NCBI GenBank assembly: GCA_963805975.1
Contig: CAWDVR010000005.1
Location: 32,001-96,000 of the forward strand
Length of the DNA: 64,000 nucleotides
Direction: 5' to 3'
From: an uncultured Acidobacteriota bacterium
GTDB taxonomy: Bacteria > Acidobacteriota > Thermoanaerobaculia > Multivoradales > SZUA-115
The translations under genes were made by a program, and so were the position numbers. This document shows, one piece after another, positions 36,884 to 62,055 of the stretch; the first letter of the stretch is position 1, and the number at the start of each line of letters is the position of its first letter. The notes below the pieces were generated by a model. The model was not told the origin of the DNA. It did no database searches and saw nothing but the letters and a program-made list of their open reading frames with translations.

Positions 36884-37591
36884 ATGGACGAGGGCAAGGG
36901 GAAGGTTCGCGAGACGATCGAGGCGCTGTTGATCGCCGTGATCTTCCTGCGCTTCGCCAACACCTTCGTCGCCCAGACCTTCTACATCCCGAGCGGCTCG
37001 ATGGAGGAGACGCTACAGGTGGGCGACCATCTGTTCGTCAACCGTTTCATCTTCGGCCAGGAGGGCTTTCTCGGCGACAATCCGCTGGTTCCTGCCCGGG
37101 CGGTACAACGTGGTGACGTGGTGGTCTTCCGCTCGGTCGAGGATCCGACCGTGGACGTGGTCAAGCGCTGCGTCGGTCTGCCGGGCGACAAGGTACGGAT
37201 CGAGGACAAACAGCTCTACCTGAACGGGCAGCGTGTGGACGACGACGCCTATGCGATCCACAAGCTGGCGGGCGAGCAGGGGGGCCAGTCCCAGCTCCAG
37301 ATCAGAGCCTACGTCCGCAGGCGCGACAACTTCGGGCCGGTCGAGGTGCCCGGCGGCCATTACTTCTGCATGGGCGACAACCGCGACAACTCCCACGACT
37401 CGCGATTTTGGGGCTTCCTGCCGGCGCACCTCATCAAGGGGCGCGCCTTCTTCGTCTACTGGTCGTACGGCGGCGGCACGCCGGACGGCAGGTGGCGCGG
37501 TTGGGGCCCCAAGCTCGCACAGCTCGGCCGCACGGCCGCTGGTTTCTTCACCAAGACGCGCTGGGATCGAACCTTCCTCCTGGTCCGTTGA
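36884..37591 (+). CDS. lepB: Signal peptidase I
   Basis: IPSGSM (Ser), VVKRCVG (Lys), MGDNRDNSHDSR. Confidence 0.93.
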   Translation: MDEGKGKVRETIEALLIAVIFLRFANTFVAQTFYIPSGSMEETLQVGDHLFVNRFIFGQEGFLGDNPLVPARAVQRGDVVVFRSVEDPTVDVVKRCVGLPGDKVRIEDKQLYLNGQRVDDDAYAIHKLAGEQGGQSQLQIRAYVRRRDNFGPVEVPGGHYFCMGDNRDNSHDSRFWGFLPAHLIKGRAFFVYWSYGGGTPDGRWRGWGPKLAQLGRTAAGFFTKTRWDRTFLLVR

Positions 37592-38241
37592 TGGCTCCGC
37601 CGGGAGGTGCCGGCGCGGGCGGGGCGGGGCGCCGGGTGCTGCCGGTCCTCCTGACCGCGTTGGTGCTGGCCGTTTTTACCCGCACTTTCGTACTGCAGGG
37701 CTTTCGCATTCCGAGCTCCTCGATGGCGCCGGGTCTCCTGGCCGGCGACCACGTTCTAGTCGACAAATTCATCTTCGGCGCCTCGGCTTCTGCGCTCGCC
37801 GCGCGGCTCCTCCCCTTGCGGCCGATCCGGCGCGGCGACGTGGTGGTCTTCAAGCTCCCGGCCGAGCCGCGGCGCGCCTTCGTCAAGCGCTGTGTGGGGC
37901 TGCCCGGCGACACGATCGAGATCCGCGACCGGCTGCTGTGGCTGAACGGCCGGCCGGTGGACGAGAGGGGCTATCTCTCGCCCGCGAGCGGAGCTCCGCC
38001 CGGCGACCGCCGGCGGCCGCGCGACGACTTCGGCCCGCTGACCGTGCCTCTGCGCCAGTACTTCTGCCTGGGTGACAACCGGAACGACTCGGACGACTCG
38101 CGGTTCTTCGGCACGGTGCCGGCGAGCTACGTCCAGGGCCGGGTGGTGCTGGTCTACGCGTCGGTTGCGACCGGGGAGAGGGGCCGGCATGGCCTCTTCA
38201 CCCGCCTCCGCTGGCAGCGGATCGGAAGGCTGGTGCGCTGA
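37591..38241 (+). CDS. lepB: Signal peptidase I, second tandem copy
   Basis: IPSSSM, FVKRCVG, LGDNRNDSDDSR. Confidence 0.9.
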   Translation: MAPPGGAGAGGAGRRVLPVLLTALVLAVFTRTFVLQGFRIPSSSMAPGLLAGDHVLVDKFIFGASASALAARLLPLRPIRRGDVVVFKLPAEPRRAFVKRCVGLPGDTIEIRDRLLWLNGRPVDERGYLSPASGAPPGDRRRPRDDFGPLTVPLRQYFCLGDNRNDSDDSRFFGTVPASYVQGRVVLVYASVATGERGRHGLFTRLRWQRIGRLVR

Positions 38242-38290
38242 GGGCACGGCGGCGGTAGACTAAGGGCTCTTGATCCGAGGAGGTCCGGCG

Positions 38291-40847: not shown

Positions 40848-41696
40848 TCAACCTTTCTCCATCAGGCGGTCGTAGAGCCTCATCAGCTCTTCCTCCGAGT
40901 GAAAGCGGATGCGGATCTCGCCTCCCCGCCGGCGGCGCTGAATCTCCACCTTGGTCATCAGGCGCTGGGTGAGCTTCTCCTGGGCGGCGGCGGTGTGGGC
41001 GTCGGGAAGGGCTCGCAGCCGTTTCGGGCGCGCGGGCCTCGCGGCCGGGCCGGCGGCCATCTCCTCGAGCTGCCGCGCGGTGAGCCCTTCCTCCACCGCC
41101 CGCTGCGCCAGCCGGACCTGGGCCTCCGGGTCGTCGATCGCGAGCAGCGGCCGGGCCTGGCCCGCCGTCAACCGGCCCTCGCGCAGCAGATCCTGCACCT
41201 CGGCCTGGAGCTTGAGCAGGCGCAAGGCGTTGGCGATCGTGGCGCGGGTCTTTCCGACCTTGAGGCCGATGTCCTCCTGCGAGAGCTGGAAGTCGTCCCG
41301 CAGCATGCGGTACGCCTCGGCCTCTTCGAGCGGGTTGAGGTCGGCGCGCTGGAGGTTCTCGACCAGGGCGAGCTCCAGGAGCTCGCGGTCGCTCTCCACG
41401 CGCCGGACGACGACCGGCACCTCGGCGAGGCCGGCGCGCCGCGCCGCGCGCCAGCGGCGCTCGCCGGCCACGATGGTGTAGTGGCCGTCCGCGTCCGCGG
41501 TGACCACGATCGGCTGCACGACGCCCTGGGCGCGGATCGACTCCGTCAGCTCGGCCAAGTCCGGCTCGGCAAAGTGGCTCCGCGGCTGGCGGCGGTTGGG
41601 CTTCAGCAGGTCGATCGACAGGCTGTTGACCGCCGCCTGCGGCTCGCCGAGGAGCGCGTCGAGCCCACGGCCGAGGCCGCGCTTCTTGGTCGTCAT
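40848..41696 (-). CDS. parB: Chromosome partitioning protein ParB
   Basis: KRGLGRGLDALL, QPR, IVAGERRWRAA, ENLQRADLNPLEEA. Confidence 0.96.
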   Translation of the reverse strand: MTTKKRGLGRGLDALLGEPQAAVNSLSIDLLKPNRRQPRSHFAEPDLAELTESIRAQGVVQPIVVTADADGHYTIVAGERRWRAARRAGLAEVPVVVRRVESDRELLELALVENLQRADLNPLEEAEAYRMLRDDFQLSQEDIGLKVGKTRATIANALRLLKLQAEVQDLLREGRLTAGQARPLLAIDDPEAQVRLAQRAVEEGLTARQLEEMAAGPAARPARPKRLRALPDAHTAAAQEKLTQRLMTKVEIQRRRRGGEIRIRFHSEEELMRLYDRLMEKG

Positions 41697-42451
41697 GCCG
41701 CACGCCCCAGGATCTCGCGGCCGAGGGCGAGGTAGGCCTCGGCCCCTCGGCACTTGATGTCGTATTGGATCACCGGCTTGCCGTGGCTCGGAGCTTCCGC
41801 CAGGCGGACGTTTCTGGGGACGATGGTCTTGAACACCTTGTCTCCGAAGTGGCGGCGGATCTCGTCGACGATGTCGCGCGACAGGTTCGTGCGGTCGTCG
41901 TACATGGTGAGCAGGATGCCGGTGATGGTGAGCCGCGGGTTGAGCCCGCTCTGCACCCGCCGCACGGTCGAGACCAGCTCGCTCACGCCCTCGAGCGCGA
42001 AGTACTCGCATTGCAGCGGCACCACCACCCCGTCGGCGGCGGAGAGCGCGCCCACCGTCAGATGGCCCAGCGAAGGCGGGCAGTCCAGCAGGATGTAGTC
42101 GTAGCGCCCGACCACCGACTCGAGGGCGTTCTTCAGGCGCTGCTCCCAGCCCGGATTGCCCACGAACTCCACCTCGACGCCCACCAGGTCGCGATCGGCC
42201 GGAACGAGGTCGAGGTTGGGAAAGACGGTCGCGCGGGCCACGGACTCGAGCGTGCAATCCCCCGACAGCGCGTGGTAGAGGTTCTGGGGTCCGGCCTTCT
42301 CGCCGAGGCCGCGCGTGGCGTTGCCCTGGGGGTCTCCGTCCACCAGCAGCACCTTGCGCTCGAACGCCGCGAGGGCTGCACCCAGGTTGATGGCGGTCGT
42401 GGTCTTGCCGACCCCGCCCTTCTGATTGGCCACTGCCAGAATGGTTCCCAT
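41693..42451 (-). CDS. parA: Chromosome partitioning ATPase ParA/Soj
   Basis: NQKGGVGKTT, DPQGNAT, DCPPSLG, PRNVRLAEAPSHG. Confidence 0.96.
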   Translation of the reverse strand: MGTILAVANQKGGVGKTTTAINLGAALAAFERKVLLVDGDPQGNATRGLGEKAGPQNLYHALSGDCTLESVARATVFPNLDLVPADRDLVGVEVEFVGNPGWEQRLKNALESVVGRYDYILLDCPPSLGHLTVGALSAADGVVVPLQCEYFALEGVSELVSTVRRVQSGLNPRLTITGILLTMYDDRTNLSRDIVDEIRRHFGDKVFKTIVPRNVRLAEAPSHGKPVIQYDIKCRGAEAYLALGREILGRAA

Positions 42452-42464
42452 CCCGTCGTCCGCC

Positions 42465-43109
42465 TCAGTTCGTTCTTCGGCGCAGTTCCACGATACGTCG
42501 CCGGCTGGAGCCAGGGATACGGACCTCCGTTCCCAGTTCGAAGCCCTGCGGAGGCTCTGGCGCCTCCTCTCCCACCCAGAAGAGCATGCGGCCGTCGCGG
42601 GAGAGACGCTCTCCGAGAGCGGAGAGCAGCTCGGCAGGGAGCTTGAGCGCCCGCGCGGTCACGAGGTCGATCGTCGGCGCGAGATCGGCGGGCAGCGAGG
42701 TGCCGACTCTAACATTGAGGCATCGACAGTCCAACGCCGCCTTACGGGCGGCGGCCTCGAGAAAAGCCCACTTGCGCTGCCGAGCTTCGATCAAAGTCAC
42801 TCGCGCTCCGGGCAGGGCCGCGGCGAGCACCAGCCCCGGAAAGCCGGCGCCGCTGCCCAGGTCGACGATCTCCCGGCACGCCGGCTGGACGAGGGGCAAG
42901 GCGGCCAGGGACTCCCCGTAGTGCCGTGCCAAGACTTCGTCGATCGTGCCGGGACCGATGAGTGACAACGAGCGATTCCAGCGTCTCAGTTCCTGGTAGT
43001 GAGCATGGAGTGCTTCGAGAGCCTGGCCGCTCAACGAGACCGGGCTCGAAGCCGAGATCTGACGGGCGAAGGGGCGGAGATCGAGATCTGGAAGATCGTG
43101 ACGGGGCAT
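42465..43109 (-). CDS. rsmG: 16S rRNA m7G527 methyltransferase
   Basis: WNRSLSL, RHYGESL, DLGSGAGFPG, VTARAL. Confidence 0.92.
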   Translation of the reverse strand: MPRHDLPDLDLRPFARQISASSPVSLSGQALEALHAHYQELRRWNRSLSLIGPGTIDEVLARHYGESLAALPLVQPACREIVDLGSGAGFPGLVLAAALPGARVTLIEARQRKWAFLEAAARKAALDCRCLNVRVGTSLPADLAPTIDLVTARALKLPAELLSALGERLSRDGRMLFWVGEEAPEPPQGFELGTEVRIPGSSRRRIVELRRRTN

Positions 43110-43172
43110 TTGAGGATCGACCGAAGCCAACGCTATTACAAAAGCTCGACAAGAGGCAGCTCGACAAGAGGG

Positions 43173-43259
43173 ACGTTTCACGCGAAACTCCACGGTGAAA
43201 CAGCGCTCGATCCGGAGTCCTCGGCGTGCACGTTTCACGGGAAACCCTACGGTGAAACA
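43173..43259. promoter_or_regulatory. Two parS-like palindromes, each followed by an extra half-site, in a duplicated 30-bp unit
   Basis: GTTTCACGCGAAAC and GTTTCACGGGAAAC vs consensus TGTTTCACGTGAAACA; upstream of rsmG-parA-parB. Confidence 0.75.
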
Positions 43260-43599
43260 ACCCCAGAACCCGGCGGACCTCTCCCTCTTCGACGCCGGAT
43301 TCTTCATTGGCATCCTGGTTGGAGAGGGGCATTTCGGTGGAGATGGGAAGCAACCGCAGCTCACCCTGCGGATGCACGTGGATCACGAGCCGCTGTTTCG
43401 CTGGCTCGAAAGAACCTTCCCCGGCGGAAAGCTCTACGGCCCCTACGATCACGGCGGCCGGCACTACTTTCAGTGGATGGCCCGCGGCGCCTATCTGAAG
43501 GAGGTCTTGGTGCCGCTGCTCGACCAGCACCTCACTCCCGACCTCGACGCCAAGGCGTGCTCCCGCTACCGGGAGATGAAGGAGAAGTACCGCCTCTGA
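43252..43599 (+). CDS. Small single-motif LAGLIDADG-like protein (alternative GTG start at 43195)
   Basis: FDAGFFIGILVGEGHF helix then beta strands (QLTLRM, HYFQW); host-like codon usage. Confidence 0.65.
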   Translation: MKQPQNPADLSLFDAGFFIGILVGEGHFGGDGKQPQLTLRMHVDHEPLFRWLERTFPGGKLYGPYDHGGRHYFQWMARGAYLKEVLVPLLDQHLTPDLDAKACSRYREMKEKYRL

Positions 43600-44541
43600 C
43601 TAGGTGTTGGTGCTCAAGAGGTTGTTCACCCTGGAGAGGGGTGGTAGTCCGCCCAAGGCGGAATGGGGTCGATGTTGATTGTAGAAGTGGAGCCATCTGG
43701 GCAGCATCTGGGTTCGGTCCAAGGAGCTCGGGTAGGGGCGGCCGTAGGCCCATTCTCGCAAGGCGGTTTGGATGAAGCGTTCGGCCTTGCCGTTGGTTCG
43801 AGGTCGATAGGGCCGGGTGCGGCTGTGGCGTAGTCCTGCTTGTTGGCAGTTTCGGGCGAAGAGGTGAGAGCGGTAGGCCGAGCCGTTGTCGGTGAGCAGA
43901 CGTCGGATCGGTACGCCGAGCTGGTCAAACCAGGCTACAGAGCGCTGTAGGAAAGAGGCTGTGGTTTCGGCCCGTTCATCGGGCAGGATCTCGACGTAGG
44001 CGAGTCGGCTGAAATCGTCGATGGCGACGTGGGCAAACTCCCAGCCCACTCCCCGAGCGCGCTTGTTGCGTTGGCCGGTGATGCGATGGCCGATTCCGTC
44101 GATCTTGCCGAGTTTCTTGATGTCGAGGTGCAGCAGGTCGCCAGGAGCCTCCCGCTCATAGCGCACCACAGGGACTGGGGGTTCCAGGTCGCGGAGCCGC
44201 GACAGGCCGTGCCGCCGAAGGATACGGCCTATGGTAGCTCGCGACAGACCCAGAGATCGGGCCAGGGCCAGAGCGCACAGACGGTGCTTCCGGCGTAGAT
44301 CCAAGACCTTCTGCTCTTGCAAGGCCGGCAGACGATGAGGCGAGCGGCAGGGGCGCGAGGAGCGATCCAGGAGGCCGGCTTCGCCCTCGAGACGGTAGCG
44401 CTGGAGCCACTTGGCTACCGTACGCACCGACAGGCCGAGGGCTTCTGCCGCCTGACGGCGGCTCCAGCCCTCGGCCTCCACCCGCTCAATCAGCAGGGCT
44501 CGACTTTCGGGGGTCGTTTTTGCTCTTCTATGGATGTTCAC
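43600..44541 (-). CDS. IS481 DDE transposase
   Basis: NIHRRAKTT, LHLDIKKLG, AIDDFSR, TDNGSAY, TNGKAERF; GGAGG RBS. Confidence 0.95.
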   Translation of the reverse strand: MNIHRRAKTTPESRALLIERVEAEGWSRRQAAEALGLSVRTVAKWLQRYRLEGEAGLLDRSSRPCRSPHRLPALQEQKVLDLRRKHRLCALALARSLGLSRATIGRILRRHGLSRLRDLEPPVPVVRYEREAPGDLLHLDIKKLGKIDGIGHRITGQRNKRARGVGWEFAHVAIDDFSRLAYVEILPDERAETTASFLQRSVAWFDQLGVPIRRLLTDNGSAYRSHLFARNCQQAGLRHSRTRPYRPRTNGKAERFIQTALREWAYGRPYPSSLDRTQMLPRWLHFYNQHRPHSALGGLPPLSRVNNLLSTNT

Positions 44542-44626
44542 CCGGGGAGCCTCCGTGGGATGCCAGGTCTTCGACAAACCCAGCTTCCCACAGCTGCCCG
44601 GGTGAACAACCTCCTGAGCACTCACA
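43605..44626. mobile_element. IS481 family insertion sequence, 1022 bp
   Basis: TGT...ACA ends, 26-bp imperfect terminal inverted repeats, 6-bp target duplication ACTAGG (43599-43604, 44627-44632), lower GC. Confidence 0.95.
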
Positions 44627-44627
44627 A

Positions 44628-45488
44628 CTAGGCCGGAAGGACGGTGACCCGCTTGAAGTACCCGTCGCCCTCGCTCTCCGTCCGCACGCCAGGCTGATCG
44701 GCCAGGGTGAGGTGGACGATGCGGCGCTCCGCGGGGCTCATGGCCTGGAGGCGGACCGGCTGGCGGGTGTCGCGCACCGACGCGGCGGTCTCCAGGGCCA
44801 GGCGGAGAAGCTCCTGCTCGTGACTCTCGCGAAAGCCGTCGGTATCCACGTGGCAGTGCAGGCTCTCGCCTTCGACGCGCGCCAGCACGCGCTGGAGCAG
44901 GTGCTCGATGGCGCGCAGCAGCTCCGCCTCGTCGTCGAGCAGCAGCTCGCGGTCCGGGCCCGAGAGGTTGATCCGTACCTCCCCACCCTCCATCCGCACG
45001 TCGTACACGAGCTCCAGGCCGGCCAGGCGAAGGACGAGCTCGAGCGTGCTGCGGGTCCGACCGACGATCGCGGCCGGGGTATCGGCCGAGGGCGAGGGAG
45101 GAGGCTCGCTCGCCACGGGGGGCGCAGGGGGGACGGTCGGGTACGCCGGAGTGAGGCGCGGTGCCTCGCGAGGAGGAGGTGCCGCCTGCCGCGGGGCCGC
45201 CGGGGCGGGGAAAGGCTCCTGCTCGCCCGCGCGAGGGAGTGCGGCGCCTGGCGCCGTGGGAGGTAGAGCAGCTTTGGGAGTCTCGGCCGCCGCCGGGGCC
45301 TGCTGCTTGCCCGGGCTCGCGGGATCGATGTCGAGCACCACGCGCCGCGGGAACCGCAAGAAGCCGTGACGCTTCTCCACCAGGCGATACGCGATGCTCC
45401 CCGGCTCCATCCGGTGGTAGCGCGCCGCCAGCACCAGCGCCTGCTCGATCGAGTTGCCTGCGAAAAACCGTCGCTTGCGAACGTTCAT
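44628..45488 (-). CDS. jag: Jag/EloR (KhpB) R3H-domain RNA-binding protein
   Basis: Jag-N domain, Pro/Ala linker, MSPAERRIVH, TESEGDG; downstream of yidC. Confidence 0.85.
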   Translation of the reverse strand: MNVRKRRFFAGNSIEQALVLAARYHRMEPGSIAYRLVEKRHGFLRFPRRVVLDIDPASPGKQQAPAAAETPKAALPPTAPGAALPRAGEQEPFPAPAAPRQAAPPPREAPRLTPAYPTVPPAPPVASEPPPSPSADTPAAIVGRTRSTLELVLRLAGLELVYDVRMEGGEVRINLSGPDRELLLDDEAELLRAIEHLLQRVLARVEGESLHCHVDTDGFRESHEQELLRLALETAASVRDTRQPVRLQAMSPAERRIVHLTLADQPGVRTESEGDGYFKRVTVLPA

Positions 45489-45496
45489 TCCTCGCC

Positions 45497-47221
45497 TCAG
45501 GTCGCCTTGACCGCTCCGGCCTTGCCCGCCGCGGAGAGCGGCCGCTTCTTCAGCCGGTTGTAGACCGTCTGCTGGATGATCGAGAGCACGTTGTTGGTCA
45601 GCCAGTAGAGAACCAGGCCGCTGGGAAAGCCCACGAAGAGGACGGTGAAGACCAGCGGCATGGCCATCATCATCTTCCGCTGCGCCGGGTTGCCGATGGC
45701 CGGCATCATCATCTGCTGCGCGAACTGCGTCGCTCCCATGACGATGGGCAACACGTAGTACGGGTCGTGAGCCGAGAGGTCGTGGATCCACAGGATCCAG
45801 GGCGCATGCCGCAGCTCCACCGAGGCGGGCAGGATGTTGTAGAAGGCGATGAACACGGGAAGCTGCATGAGGATCGGCAGGCAGCCGCCCATGGGGTTGA
45901 CGCCCTCGCTCTTGTAGAGGGCCATCATCTCTTCGTTCATCTTGCGCTGCGTCTCGAGGTTCGGTCGCCCCTGCTTGTCCTTCATCTTGCCGGCGTACTT
46001 GCTCCGCACCACCTGCATCTTGGGGTTCAGCCCCTGCATCTTCGCGGCCGAGACCATGCTGGTGTGGGTGAGCGGCAGGAGCACGATCTTGATCAGCGTG
46101 GTCATCAGCACGATCGCCCAGCCGTAATTGCTGACCACGTTGTGGTAGATCCACTGCAGGCCGAACATCAGGGGCAGGGCGAGGAAGCGGAACCAGCCGA
46201 GCTCGATCGTGCGGTCGAGATCCTGGCCGAGCTGAGCGAGGCGGGCGTATTGCTTGGCTCCGAAGTAGGCCGCGGCCTCGAGGCGCTCCGCCTCCGGCTC
46301 GAGGAGGACCAGGAAGTCCCGCTTGAGCCCCTTCTGGTCCTTGCTCAGTTGGGATTCCGGCGGCAAGGGGCTGTAGCGCGCCACACCGGTGGCCTGATCC
46401 GGCTGGACGAGCACCGGCAGGAGACGCATCTGCTGCAGCGGTGTCGACGGCAGGAGGACCGAGAGGAAGTAGTTGTCGTCGAGACCGACCCAGGAGAGGC
46501 CGCCGCCCGGCAACGTCGTCGGCTCCTCGGCCTTCCCCGCATCCAGGCGCTCCACCTCGCCGTTCGCGCGGTAGACCGCGCGGCGTACGGCGAGCTTCGC
46601 CGAGGATTCCTCGCTCGAAGGGTTGCCGAGCCCCGGGCCCAGGAGCAGGCTCCAGTTGCCAACCCGCACAGCCTGCACCGAGACGTCGAACTGGCCGCCC
46701 TCGCCGAAGGAGAAGCGCTTCTCGACCTCACCGGCCGGTCCCCGGTAGCGGAAGGTGAGCGCCTTCGCGGCAGCGTCCTCTTCCACGACGAACAGGGCGT
46801 CGTTGACGGCCAGGGACTTGCCGTCCGCGCCGGTGAGTGCAAAGGGGTACGGCCCGTCCGCCCGCGCTCGAACCAGGTCGAGCACCTCGCCGGTGCCGGT
46901 GGTGTGCTCCTTCAACTGGAATGAGACGAGCTGCGCGCCGCGGTTGGTGAACTCGGCCACGGCGGTCACCGTCTCGAGGCGGAACCGCTGCTCGTCACCA
47001 GCCGTCACCACCGGCGAGGAAGCCTCGATCTCGGGGCCTGCCGGCACGATTTGCTCGCTGGCGGCGGCCGGGGCGTCGCTTGCCGGGGCCGGCGATGTGC
47101 CCGTGACCTCCGCCGGCGCTGTCGCTCCGGGTTGGGTTTTTTTCGGCGCCAGAAAGCGCCCCCAGAGCAGGAGCACGGCGATCGACAGCACCACGGCGAG
47201 GAGCAACCGGCGATTTTCCAC
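45497..47221 (-). CDS. yidC: Membrane protein insertase YidC
   Basis: NYGWAIV, NPMGGCLP, WIHDLSAHDPYYVLP, PSGLVLYW. Confidence 0.96.
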   Translation of the reverse strand: MENRRLLLAVVLSIAVLLLWGRFLAPKKTQPGATAPAEVTGTSPAPASDAPAAASEQIVPAGPEIEASSPVVTAGDEQRFRLETVTAVAEFTNRGAQLVSFQLKEHTTGTGEVLDLVRARADGPYPFALTGADGKSLAVNDALFVVEEDAAAKALTFRYRGPAGEVEKRFSFGEGGQFDVSVQAVRVGNWSLLLGPGLGNPSSEESSAKLAVRRAVYRANGEVERLDAGKAEEPTTLPGGGLSWVGLDDNYFLSVLLPSTPLQQMRLLPVLVQPDQATGVARYSPLPPESQLSKDQKGLKRDFLVLLEPEAERLEAAAYFGAKQYARLAQLGQDLDRTIELGWFRFLALPLMFGLQWIYHNVVSNYGWAIVLMTTLIKIVLLPLTHTSMVSAAKMQGLNPKMQVVRSKYAGKMKDKQGRPNLETQRKMNEEMMALYKSEGVNPMGGCLPILMQLPVFIAFYNILPASVELRHAPWILWIHDLSAHDPYYVLPIVMGATQFAQQMMMPAIGNPAQRKMMMAMPLVFTVLFVGFPSGLVLYWLTNNVLSIIQQTVYNRLKKRPLSAAGKAGAVKAT

Positions 47222-48134: not shown

Positions 48135-49295
48135 ATGCCGCCGCCGCTCCGCCTGCGGGCCACGTCTTGGTTCGGCGATGCCGTCCTGGCGATGGCGGGG
48201 GTGCCCGCCCCGGGGCGCCTGCCGCCGCCCGCACCGGGTCCGCCCCACCCTCCCCGCTCGCTCGCCGAGCTCTGGACCGCAATCCGGGTCATTCCGCGCG
48301 CCGGCTCCGCGCTCGGCGGTTTGCGCGCCACCCTGAGCGCAGTGCGCGGAGACCTCCTCCGGAAGCAGCTCGACCAGCGGCCCGGCTTTGCCGGCCGCGG
48401 CTCGCCGCCACCCGGCTTCGGCGAGATCGACGGCATCGAGGTCGAGCCGGGCCGTTCGCCTCTCCATGCCTGGATCCATCCGCCCGCGGCCGGCCGGCCG
48501 GTTCTGTTCGTGTTGCACGGCCTCTACGACAGCCGGCAGAGCGGCTACGTCCTCCGCACCGCCGAATGGCTGGCCGGCCTCGGCTTCGGTGTCGTGGCGC
48601 CGGACCTCCGCTGGCACGGCAGGCTTTTCGGCGCCGAGCACATGCCGACTCTCGGCCTCCTCGAAGCCCGGGACCTCATCGCCTGGAGCCGCTTCCTCCA
48701 CGCCCGGCATCCCGGCCACCCGCAGGGCCTCCTGGGTTTCTCGCTGAGCACCCTAGCTGCGGCTCACGCCCTGGCTTCGCCGGAGGCCGCGACCCTGTTC
48801 GCGAGCGGCGGGGTGCTGGTCTCGCCGCCGGGTCCGCTCGCCCAGGCCCTGGACCTTCTCGACAAGGTTTCCCTCTTCGCCCATCCCCCGGGCTCCGGTG
48901 TGGTGCCGTTTCTCTTTCGCCGGCTCCTGGTCGAGCGCATGGAACGGCTGGGGCTGGGGAGAGCCGAGCACCGTCCCTTCGCGGCTCTCCTGGCAGAGGT
49001 CGGTCGACGACGGCCGCTAGGGGCGTTGCTCACGCCCGCCGAGCTCCTGGCCGAGGCCGATCACCTGCCGGCGCTCGCGCGTGCCCGCCGGCCGCTCCTG
49101 CTGCTGTGCTCGGAGGACGACCCCATCTTTCCCGCGCCGGCGCCCGTACAGCTCGCGGAGGCAGCGGCCGGCAACGAGCGCGTGCTCGTCCTGCCCTCAC
49201 CCTCTGGCGGCCACCTGGGGCAGCTCGCACTCCATTCGCAGTGGTTCGCCGACGTAGTCGCCCTGTTCGCGACCCACTCGGCCACGCTCGAGTGA
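48135..49295 (+). CDS. Alpha/beta hydrolase
   Basis: LHGL, DLRWHG, GFSLS nucleophile elbow, EDDP, GGH. Confidence 0.75.
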   Translation: MPPPLRLRATSWFGDAVLAMAGVPAPGRLPPPAPGPPHPPRSLAELWTAIRVIPRAGSALGGLRATLSAVRGDLLRKQLDQRPGFAGRGSPPPGFGEIDGIEVEPGRSPLHAWIHPPAAGRPVLFVLHGLYDSRQSGYVLRTAEWLAGLGFGVVAPDLRWHGRLFGAEHMPTLGLLEARDLIAWSRFLHARHPGHPQGLLGFSLSTLAAAHALASPEAATLFASGGVLVSPPGPLAQALDLLDKVSLFAHPPGSGVVPFLFRRLLVERMERLGLGRAEHRPFAALLAEVGRRRPLGALLTPAELLAEADHLPALARARRPLLLLCSEDDPIFPAPAPVQLAEAAAGNERVLVLPSPSGGHLGQLALHSQWFADVVALFATHSATLE

Positions 49296-49332
49296 GGTGA
49301 AGCTGTCGGGGGGACTTCGGTGCAGGGGGAAA

Positions 49333-49423
<91 letters not shown>

Positions 49424-49438
49424 AGGTCTGGCAAGCAT

Positions 49439-49528
<90 letters not shown>

Positions 49529-49544: not shown

Positions 49545-50042
49545 TCAAGGCCGGCTAGCAGGCGCACCGCTCGCGCGGCGCCTCAGGGCGGCAAAAAACT
49601 CTTTCAACAAGGCCCCGCACGGCTCGGCGAGAACCCCGCCCTCGACTGCGAGGCAGTGATTCAAGCGCGGATCGCGAACCAGATCGCCCAAGGTGCCGCA
49701 AAAACCGGCCTTGGGGTCGCTCGCGCCGAACACCAGGCGTCCAACCCTGCTGTTGACCAGCGCCCCCGCGCACATGGCGCAGGGCTCGAGAGTGACGTAC
49801 ATCGTCGTTCCCTCGAGCCGCCAGCCACCGATCGCCGCCGCCGCCTGTCGGATGGCGATCAGCTCTGCGTGAGCCAGCGGATCCCGGTCCAGCTCCCGCC
49901 GGTTGTGCCCGCGGCCGATCACCTGGCCGCCGCTTACGATCACGGCACCGACGGGTACCTCGCCCAGCGCCGCGGCACGCACCGCCTCCGCCAGAGCGAG
50001 GCCCATCCAATCACGGTCCTCGTCCACTGACGGCGGCAGCAT
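49545..50042 (-). CDS. tadA: tRNA adenosine(34) deaminase
   Basis: GEVPVGAVIV, AHAE, VTLEPCAMCAGA, DPKAG. Confidence 0.95.
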   Translation of the reverse strand: MLPPSVDEDRDWMGLALAEAVRAAALGEVPVGAVIVSGGQVIGRGHNRRELDRDPLAHAELIAIRQAAAAIGGWRLEGTTMYVTLEPCAMCAGALVNSRVGRLVFGASDPKAGFCGTLGDLVRDPRLNHCLAVEGGVLAEPCGALLKEFFAALRRRASGAPASRP

Positions 50043-62039: not shown

Positions 62040-62055
62040 CGTTCCACGTGAAGCA
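62040..62055. promoter_or_regulatory. parS-like site
   Basis: CGTTCCACGTGAAGCA, near consensus, origin-proximal. Confidence 0.6.

Follow-up and report, generated by a model that had tools for sequence, protein, structure and literature searches.

The parS slot beside parAB was found to be occupied, in the window analyzed here (a stretch of 64,000 nucleotides from an uncultured Acidobacteriota bacterium), by a gene for a small LAGLIDADG-like protein preceded by two rewritten copies of parS. These repeats replace canonical parS, which is almost always missing genome-wide from carriers of the gene, a point that an earlier sequence-only reading of the locus had missed. The position of the gene at the parS slot, the rewritten parS copies and the almost invariable loss of the normal site together make a selfish element likely. 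The gene probably encodes a free-standing endonuclease with canonical parS as its cleavage site, and it probably brings along replacement sites that are immune to the enzyme and also overlap the promoter of the gene. We also lean towards seeing it as a centromere-drive element, in which a minimal meganuclease would cut the widely conserved parS and turn it into a composite centromere that resists cutting and at the same time serves as the operator of the nuclease gene, and which would have invaded chromosomes of many phyla.

The LAGLIDADG gene lies on the forward strand (43252..43599), and the stop codon TGA of its open reading frame ends at 43599. The single-LAGLIDADG frame of 115 amino acids described previously is real; this length fits GTG 43252, the most likely start, whereas the in-frame GTG at 43195 that had also been proposed gives 134 amino acids. 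As stated before, the gene is divergent from three host genes on the reverse strand, namely, rsmG (gidB; 42465..43109), parA (41693..42451), in which a Walker-type VANQKGGVGKT motif can be read, and parB (40848..41696), whose product has the canonical parS-specificity residues R151 and G179. The spacer between rsmG and the LAGLIDADG frame measures 142 bp. Between the rsmG start and the first parS-like unit, a word of 12-13 bp is directly repeated in two copies (43145-43172), and one close-strain contig shows an 18-base deletion in this region. A sigma-70 scan of 43050-43320 found no promoter, and only a weak hint came from a TTGAC-like word that 10 of 82 loci have 13-14 nt 5' of their first unit, the control comparison for it being faulty. 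A recent IS481 element (43600..44631, reverse strand) sits immediately 3' of the stop codon, and beyond it lies a convergent jag-yidC-rnpA block that begins with the host gene jag (R3H domain; 44628..45500, reverse strand, start approximate). We rejected the IS481 as a part of the element, since it occurs in only 1 of 84 loci, has four copies in the genome (99.3-100% identity, CTAG at both ends) and is missing from close-strain contigs (runs X1 and X2), which join 43598 directly to 44627. No empty allele in near-identical strains was present among the joints listed, and these contigs show presence only.

No Rfam family matched over 42000-45000, and the gene is intergenic between intact host genes, which argued against an intron or a structured RNA as its host. 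The view that the gene sits outside any intron or intein was thus upheld, and a protein of 115 amino acids without an extra domain, encoded in an intergenic region, is not an intron- or intein-encoded homing endonuclease. Elsewhere in the window, the forward strand carries at 36900-38250 two tandem frames that, as read from their translations, presumably encode signal peptidase I-like proteins, and tRNA-like sequences were seen on both strands at 49000-49520, near a deaminase-like frame (49545-50042).

The predicted model of the 115-aa protein reached a pLDDT of 93, and its top Foldseek matches were all LAGLIDADG proteins. The same held for a VIA structure search, where the best match had a Z score of 13.6 and an rmsd of 1.9 A over 103 residues and the best unrelated chain had a Z score of 4.4. 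Fold prediction and structure search, which had been proposed as the check on the LAGLIDADG claim, thus place the protein, by predicted fold, in the LAGLIDADG superfamily, with one motif. Profile searches of Pfam, NCBIfam and PHROGs gave no match for the window protein, and a sequence search of solved structures gave no LAGLIDADG match; PF14528 was matched weakly by 6 of 54 relatives (best E 0.0014), and the Atlas clusters of the protein are named LAGLIDADG-like with a score of 0.97. An alignment of 93 sequences contains 44 near-invariant columns. Both G24 and E25 are invariant in 93/93; E25, the acidic residue taken to bind metal, ends the helix 12-25 at the base of the motif helix, and it was assigned to the catalytic position via motif and secondary structure, not via superposed coordinates. 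Position 33, in the beta1-beta2 loop, is K/R in 92/93, position 101 is K/R/H in 71/93, and R105 is invariant; these candidate basic residues of the active site may include an equivalent of K43 of I-DmoI. It is established that a single-domain LAGLIDADG protein acts as a dimer on a palindrome, as passages of PMC3315327 describe, and a relative with two fused LAGLIDADG copies (P0121) is in line with a dimer. The longer relatives P0121/P0275, P0209 and P0223 (229-301 aa) have two tandem domains, and the second motif of P0121 reads REAHF. The family has no name, and GTDB genomes contain at least 558 of its members; a comparison with proteins of similar length gave 3633 relatives, the best 120 of which share 67-87% identity, and the family has 337 representatives at the 50% level. 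The closest relatives are labelled Thermoanaerobaculia.

Upstream of the gene, a conserved 29-bp unit, TGTTYCAC-GKGNNACMTKACG-GTGAAACA, was found in 82 of 84 loci, these being the best 80 of at least 558 GTDB relatives (a high-identity and biased subset) plus four more; the remaining 2 loci had less than 71 bases of flank. In this unit, parS is interrupted at its dyad by 13 bp, and both outer arms are parS halves. Since the insert begins by half-restoring the palindrome, the left part of the unit is itself a near-parS. The ACGGTGAAACA part is invariant, and the strand of the unit is that of the gene in 144/145 units. In the window, unit 1 (43174..43202, forward strand) differs from parS by one mismatch in its left 14-mer, with the centre CGC, and has the 13-bp insert and an intact right half; unit 2 (43231..43259, forward strand) also has one mismatch in the left 14-mer, with the centre GGG, and includes GTG 43252. 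Words within two mismatches of parS numbered 3 in the window, versus 0.04 expected, the third one (62041-62054, two mismatches) being located about 19 kb from the units. The parS consensus used here matches the palindrome that passages of PMC4368675 give for P. aeruginosa. Even when 3 mismatches were allowed, the unit occurred at only two places in its own genome. Units scattered around the chromosome were rejected, since in 10 genomes there were 1-2 units each, all beside the gene. At two loci there were four units upstream of the gene, within about 1.4 kb in L135 (G520) and about 0.5 kb in L131 (G494), which resembles the multi-parS arrays of some non-carriers. The GTTTCAC variant of parS was confirmed by its occurrence next to parAB in non-carriers.

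As had been reported, each of the two window units has a GTG codon in its GGTGAAACA half, at 43195 and at 43252, and the two share a reading frame at a distance of 19 codons; the positions stood, and the significance given to the shared frame did not. Indeed, in the 57 loci with two or more units, the spacing modulo 3 was even (18/20/19), and both GTG codons opened in frame in only 5, so that two alternative in-frame starts were rejected as a designed feature and the in-frame state of the two codons is due to chance. The GTG of the last unit was in frame in 40/82 loci (p 0.005 versus one third), and that of the first unit was in frame in 16/57 (p 0.48). In about half of the loci, the start codon lies within a unit, and unit 1 of the window likely overlaps the promoter; this arrangement suggests autorepression, in which the protein would bind the units where they cover the promoter and the start codon of its gene and would thereby keep its own expression low.

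We then compared carriers and non-carriers of the gene. Canonical parS was present in 3/51 carrier genomes and in 312/332 non-carriers of three host orders, kin not being independent in these counts. The genome of the window has no exact GTTYCACGTGRAAC. In its own order (131 genomes, 32 carriers), canonical parS was found in 1/32 carriers versus 92/99 non-carriers and the exact unit pattern in 30/32 carriers versus 0/99 non-carriers, the two carriers missed by the exact pattern having variant units. The corresponding values were 2/10 carriers versus 120/131 non-carriers in the order of G420 (labelled Acidimicrobiales, 141 genomes), where one of the 10 carriers is a weak match and the unpublished G550 is among the 131 non-carriers, and 0/9 versus 100/102 in the order of G421 (labelled Longimicrobiales, 111 genomes). 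Among 50 further carriers, taken from those of the 80 best GTDB loci that fall outside Thermoanaerobaculia, canonical parS was matched in 4. Moreover, non-carriers of the same genus or family have 1-2 canonical parS in the jag-rsmG gap, the slot of the gene and units in carriers. Such a state, intact parS in empty alleles and disrupted parS in carriers, is the pattern of a homing target, if parS is indeed the target. In the jag-rsmG gap of one non-carrier, L110 (G005), a seeming relic right half of a unit lies beside two canonical parS and is possibly a trace of loss and reversion.

The canonical 14-mer is kept in 7/101 carrier genomes, which counts against a parS-cutting element. Two of these carriers, in which canonical parS lies beside parAB and the unit has decayed, speak for such an element: in G556, canonical parS follows the stop codon by 18 bases and the protein deviates most among the 93 (6/44 conserved columns changed), and in G474, canonical parS comes after parB and the protein is at 52% identity. 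The canonical matches of G390 and G429 fall inside long open reading frames, and that of G693 is at a second parAB locus, the bin being probably mixed. Two others weigh against cleavage, namely, G721, which has a unit with a perfect left part, and G720, in which the mnmG gene of another contig contains the full 16-bp palindrome.

The units are parS-like by position, near parAB, and by sequence they are one-mismatch variants with an extra half-site. Compared with the nearest canonical parS, the left 14-mers of 145 units had no mismatch in 1, one in 107, two in 33 and more in 4, and comprised 49 different variants. Units had either a changed centre (GGG, GAG or GCG) or a changed arm and seldom neither; a GTG centre and an RAAC arm occurred together in 2/145 units versus 35 expected, the centre and arm types being partly clade-linked. 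The specificity arginine and glycine, which according to the accessible part of PMC7383237 define the parS preference of ParB, were present in 31/31 ParB proteins of carriers, and no ParB column was carrier-specific (best p 0.003, uncorrected, over about 300 columns), so that an altered ParB specificity in carriers was rejected. A complex prediction of the LAGLIDADG protein with ParB gave a score of 0.00 and hence no answer. On these sequence patterns, the simplest reading would be selection to stay a ParB site combined with selection against the perfect palindrome. According to passages of PMC4368675, a single mismatch in parS makes ParB binding slightly weaker than at perfect sites. The exclusion of the target from carriers would be an indirect pointer to site-specific cleavage.

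The same avoidance is expected if the protein is a non-cleaving parasite or a passenger of the parAB cassette that binds perfect parS tightly and blocks ParB, hosts escaping by one mismatch. LAGLIDADG binding and cleavage can be uncoupled, and one change in I-CreI allows binding without cutting (described in part of PMC3315327). However, such a blocker has no route of spread and gives no reason for Glu25 or for purifying selection on the whole protein, and we consider it very improbable. Avoidance also bears on a domesticated fourth partition component, which would bind the unit without cutting, tune ParB loading or rsmG-parAB transcription and have displaced canonical parS with a composite site that is sufficient for its function. 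The ACGGTGAAACA part is invariant, as expected of a site bound by such a component, and the invariant ACGG before the right arm is unexplained by cleavage alone. In contrast, mere redundancy would not drive the left site away from perfection (2/145 versus 35 expected), ParB has no carrier-specific column, and Glu25 is invariant, unlike in WhiA, which is itself the precedent for domestication (PMC3384342, consulted in part).

In the preferred reading of a parS-cutting element, the LAGLIDADG gene and one to four rewritten parS units would occupy the parS slot of the host, and a homodimeric endonuclease would read the 14-16-bp parS palindrome, with ACGT as the central four bases. A single changed base, either at the centre (GGG, GAG, GCG) or within the right arm, would stop cutting while ParB still loads, and the units would serve as cut-resistant substitute centromeres. 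Consistent with this notion, LAGLIDADG cleavage is most likely to be blocked by changes among the four central bases, according to passages of PMC13619312, and the I-CreI change that binds without cutting is in line with it as well. When origin-region DNA moves between cells, the parS of the recipient would be cut and then repaired from the carrier allele through the flanking genes (jag/mnmG, rsmG, parA) and the two intact parS arms of the unit, which would match the two broken ends of the cut parS, the gene and units being copied in as they are in the intronless homing of T4.

We further investigated the distribution of the gene. The link of homologs to parS/parAB loci, which had been named as a check, was clear, with parA within the fetched flank in 80/84 loci and the unit in 82/84. 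The gene was found in both orientations and at several insertion positions around parAB, i.e., before rsmG in either direction, in the rsmG-parA gap, after mnmG and after parB. On the ParA tree, hosts comprised Thermoanaerobaculia, Acidimicrobiia and other Actinomycetota, Gemmatimonadota, Chloroflexota, a Binatia-like group and single others. Host assignment rests on this tree, since the labels of L019 and L038 disagree with it; in L019, L038 and L170, record labels do not fit the position of ParA on the tree or a second parAB locus of the same bin, and these bins are probably mislabelled or mixed. Across the 83 rows of a ParA tree, the gene changed state at least 17 times. When 8 independent pairs were compared, parS moved opposite to the gene in 6.4 and together with it in 0 (sign test, p ~0.03), a result favoured by the way in which the non-carrier loci of the tree had been collected, with their parS as the anchor. 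In the order of G421, all nine carriers form one clade and thus represent one event.

The vertical and selective signals were those expected of a domesticated component. The gene is single-copy in its own genome and in every carrier of the three-order survey (51), beside parAB; it has long vertical runs, such as 17/20 genomes of family f3; and no match with an internal stop was found among the 51 carriers. The 44 near-invariant columns and a dN/dS of about 0.04-0.24 in close pairs indicate purifying selection, whereas homing genes usually decay, as stated in part of PMC13619312. AU tests on the protein tree did not reject host-clade monophyly (p 0.22, 0.43 and 0.45), so that horizontal transfer is unsupported by the tree. 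Cross-phylum identity was 0.63-0.68 for the LAGLIDADG protein versus 0.51-0.54 for ParA, and this high identity could be saturation. A mobile vector was rejected, since plasmids, phages and viral contigs contained no copy of the gene. The purifying selection, missing pseudogenes, vertical runs, AU results and lack of plasmid or phage copies all count against a parS-cutting element. Against domestication, the gene is absent from 332/383 sampled genomes of the three orders and has been gained or lost within genera.

Undecayed genes, purifying selection and avoidance of perfect parS would also be accounted for by a restriction function kept by the host, in which an active parS nuclease would cut incoming DNA with canonical parS, such as origin regions of relatives or mobile elements with chromosomal-type parS, the own sites having been rewritten as immune and homing being secondary. 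Free-standing endonucleases of phage T4 are known for marker exclusion (PMC2988022, accessible part). Restriction does not require the parS slot, yet 80/84 loci adjoin parA, and we regard this role as quite unlikely. The missing pseudogenes, vertical runs, AU results, absence from plasmids and phages, and ACGG leave it that small share and leave the domesticated partner somewhat more, although we think the latter rather unlikely as well.

If the parS-cutting reading is true, a selfish element is aimed at the bacterial centromere, which would account for some genomes with intact parAB yet apparently no parS. A homing enzyme would then persist across phyla through a conserved non-coding target, paid for by a substitute site, and the protein, with its 115 aa, would be a very small meganuclease whose palindromic target can be predicted. 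Should it prove to be a domesticated partner instead, an undescribed fourth ParABS component would exist in hundreds of species. A literature search gave no report of such an element, and supplementary lists of homing genes could include the family; the main text of PMC13619312 contains no occurrence of parS or ParB, and the accessible part of PMC8987985 has nothing relevant to the parS-slot element.

Among the three readings offered from sequence, the free-standing homing element fits best, and the WhiA-like regulator is weakened because the acidic residue that WhiA lacks is invariant in the protein. WhiA/DUF199 proteins share with it a bacterial chromosomal LAGLIDADG fold outside introns (Z 5.5-8.7), and passages of PMC3384342 report that WhiA regulates parAB2 in Streptomyces and is without acidic active-site residues. 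However, WhiA has two LAGLIDADG domains and, at its C-terminus, a helix-turn-helix, whereas the parS-slot protein has one domain, no helix-turn-helix, Glu25 and a patchy distribution; identity with WhiA/DUF199 was rejected, since E25 is invariant in a single-domain protein of 115 aa. By its fold, the protein is a LAGLIDADG member that is predicted to be an active enzyme and would behave like a free-standing homing endonuclease. It has its fold in common with the homodimeric, single-motif enzymes I-CreI, I-MsoI, I-CeuI, I-Vdi141I and I-TnaI (Z 9-11, rmsd 2.0-3.4 A), with one motif per chain and an acidic residue at the helix base. The targets of I-CreI-type homodimers are pseudo-palindromic (PMC3315327, in part). 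The differences are that those of the enzymes listed as intron-encoded reside in group I or archaeal introns and the parS-slot protein is free-standing, that their solved chains have about 126-207 residues versus 115 here at 8-17% identity, and that they target rDNA, whereas the target here would be a centromere. The intergenic, intronless setting is shared with Seg and Mob of T4, where gene conversion puts the carrier allele in place of the cut one, as part of PMC2988022 describes. Those enzymes are GIY-YIG or HNH proteins encoded by phages, and they cut at a distance from their genes, whereas the parS-slot gene is a chromosomal LAGLIDADG gene that lies at its presumed cut site, with a putative functional substitute for the cis-acting site that it would remove. 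I-TevI provides the precedent for autorepression. Finally, the unit shares with parS of ParABS systems its slot, its usual copy number (1-2) and a left 14-mer within one mismatch of parS in 108/145, and it differs from parS in its 13-bp dyad insert, its gene-linked strand polarity (144/145) and a palindrome that is almost never perfect.
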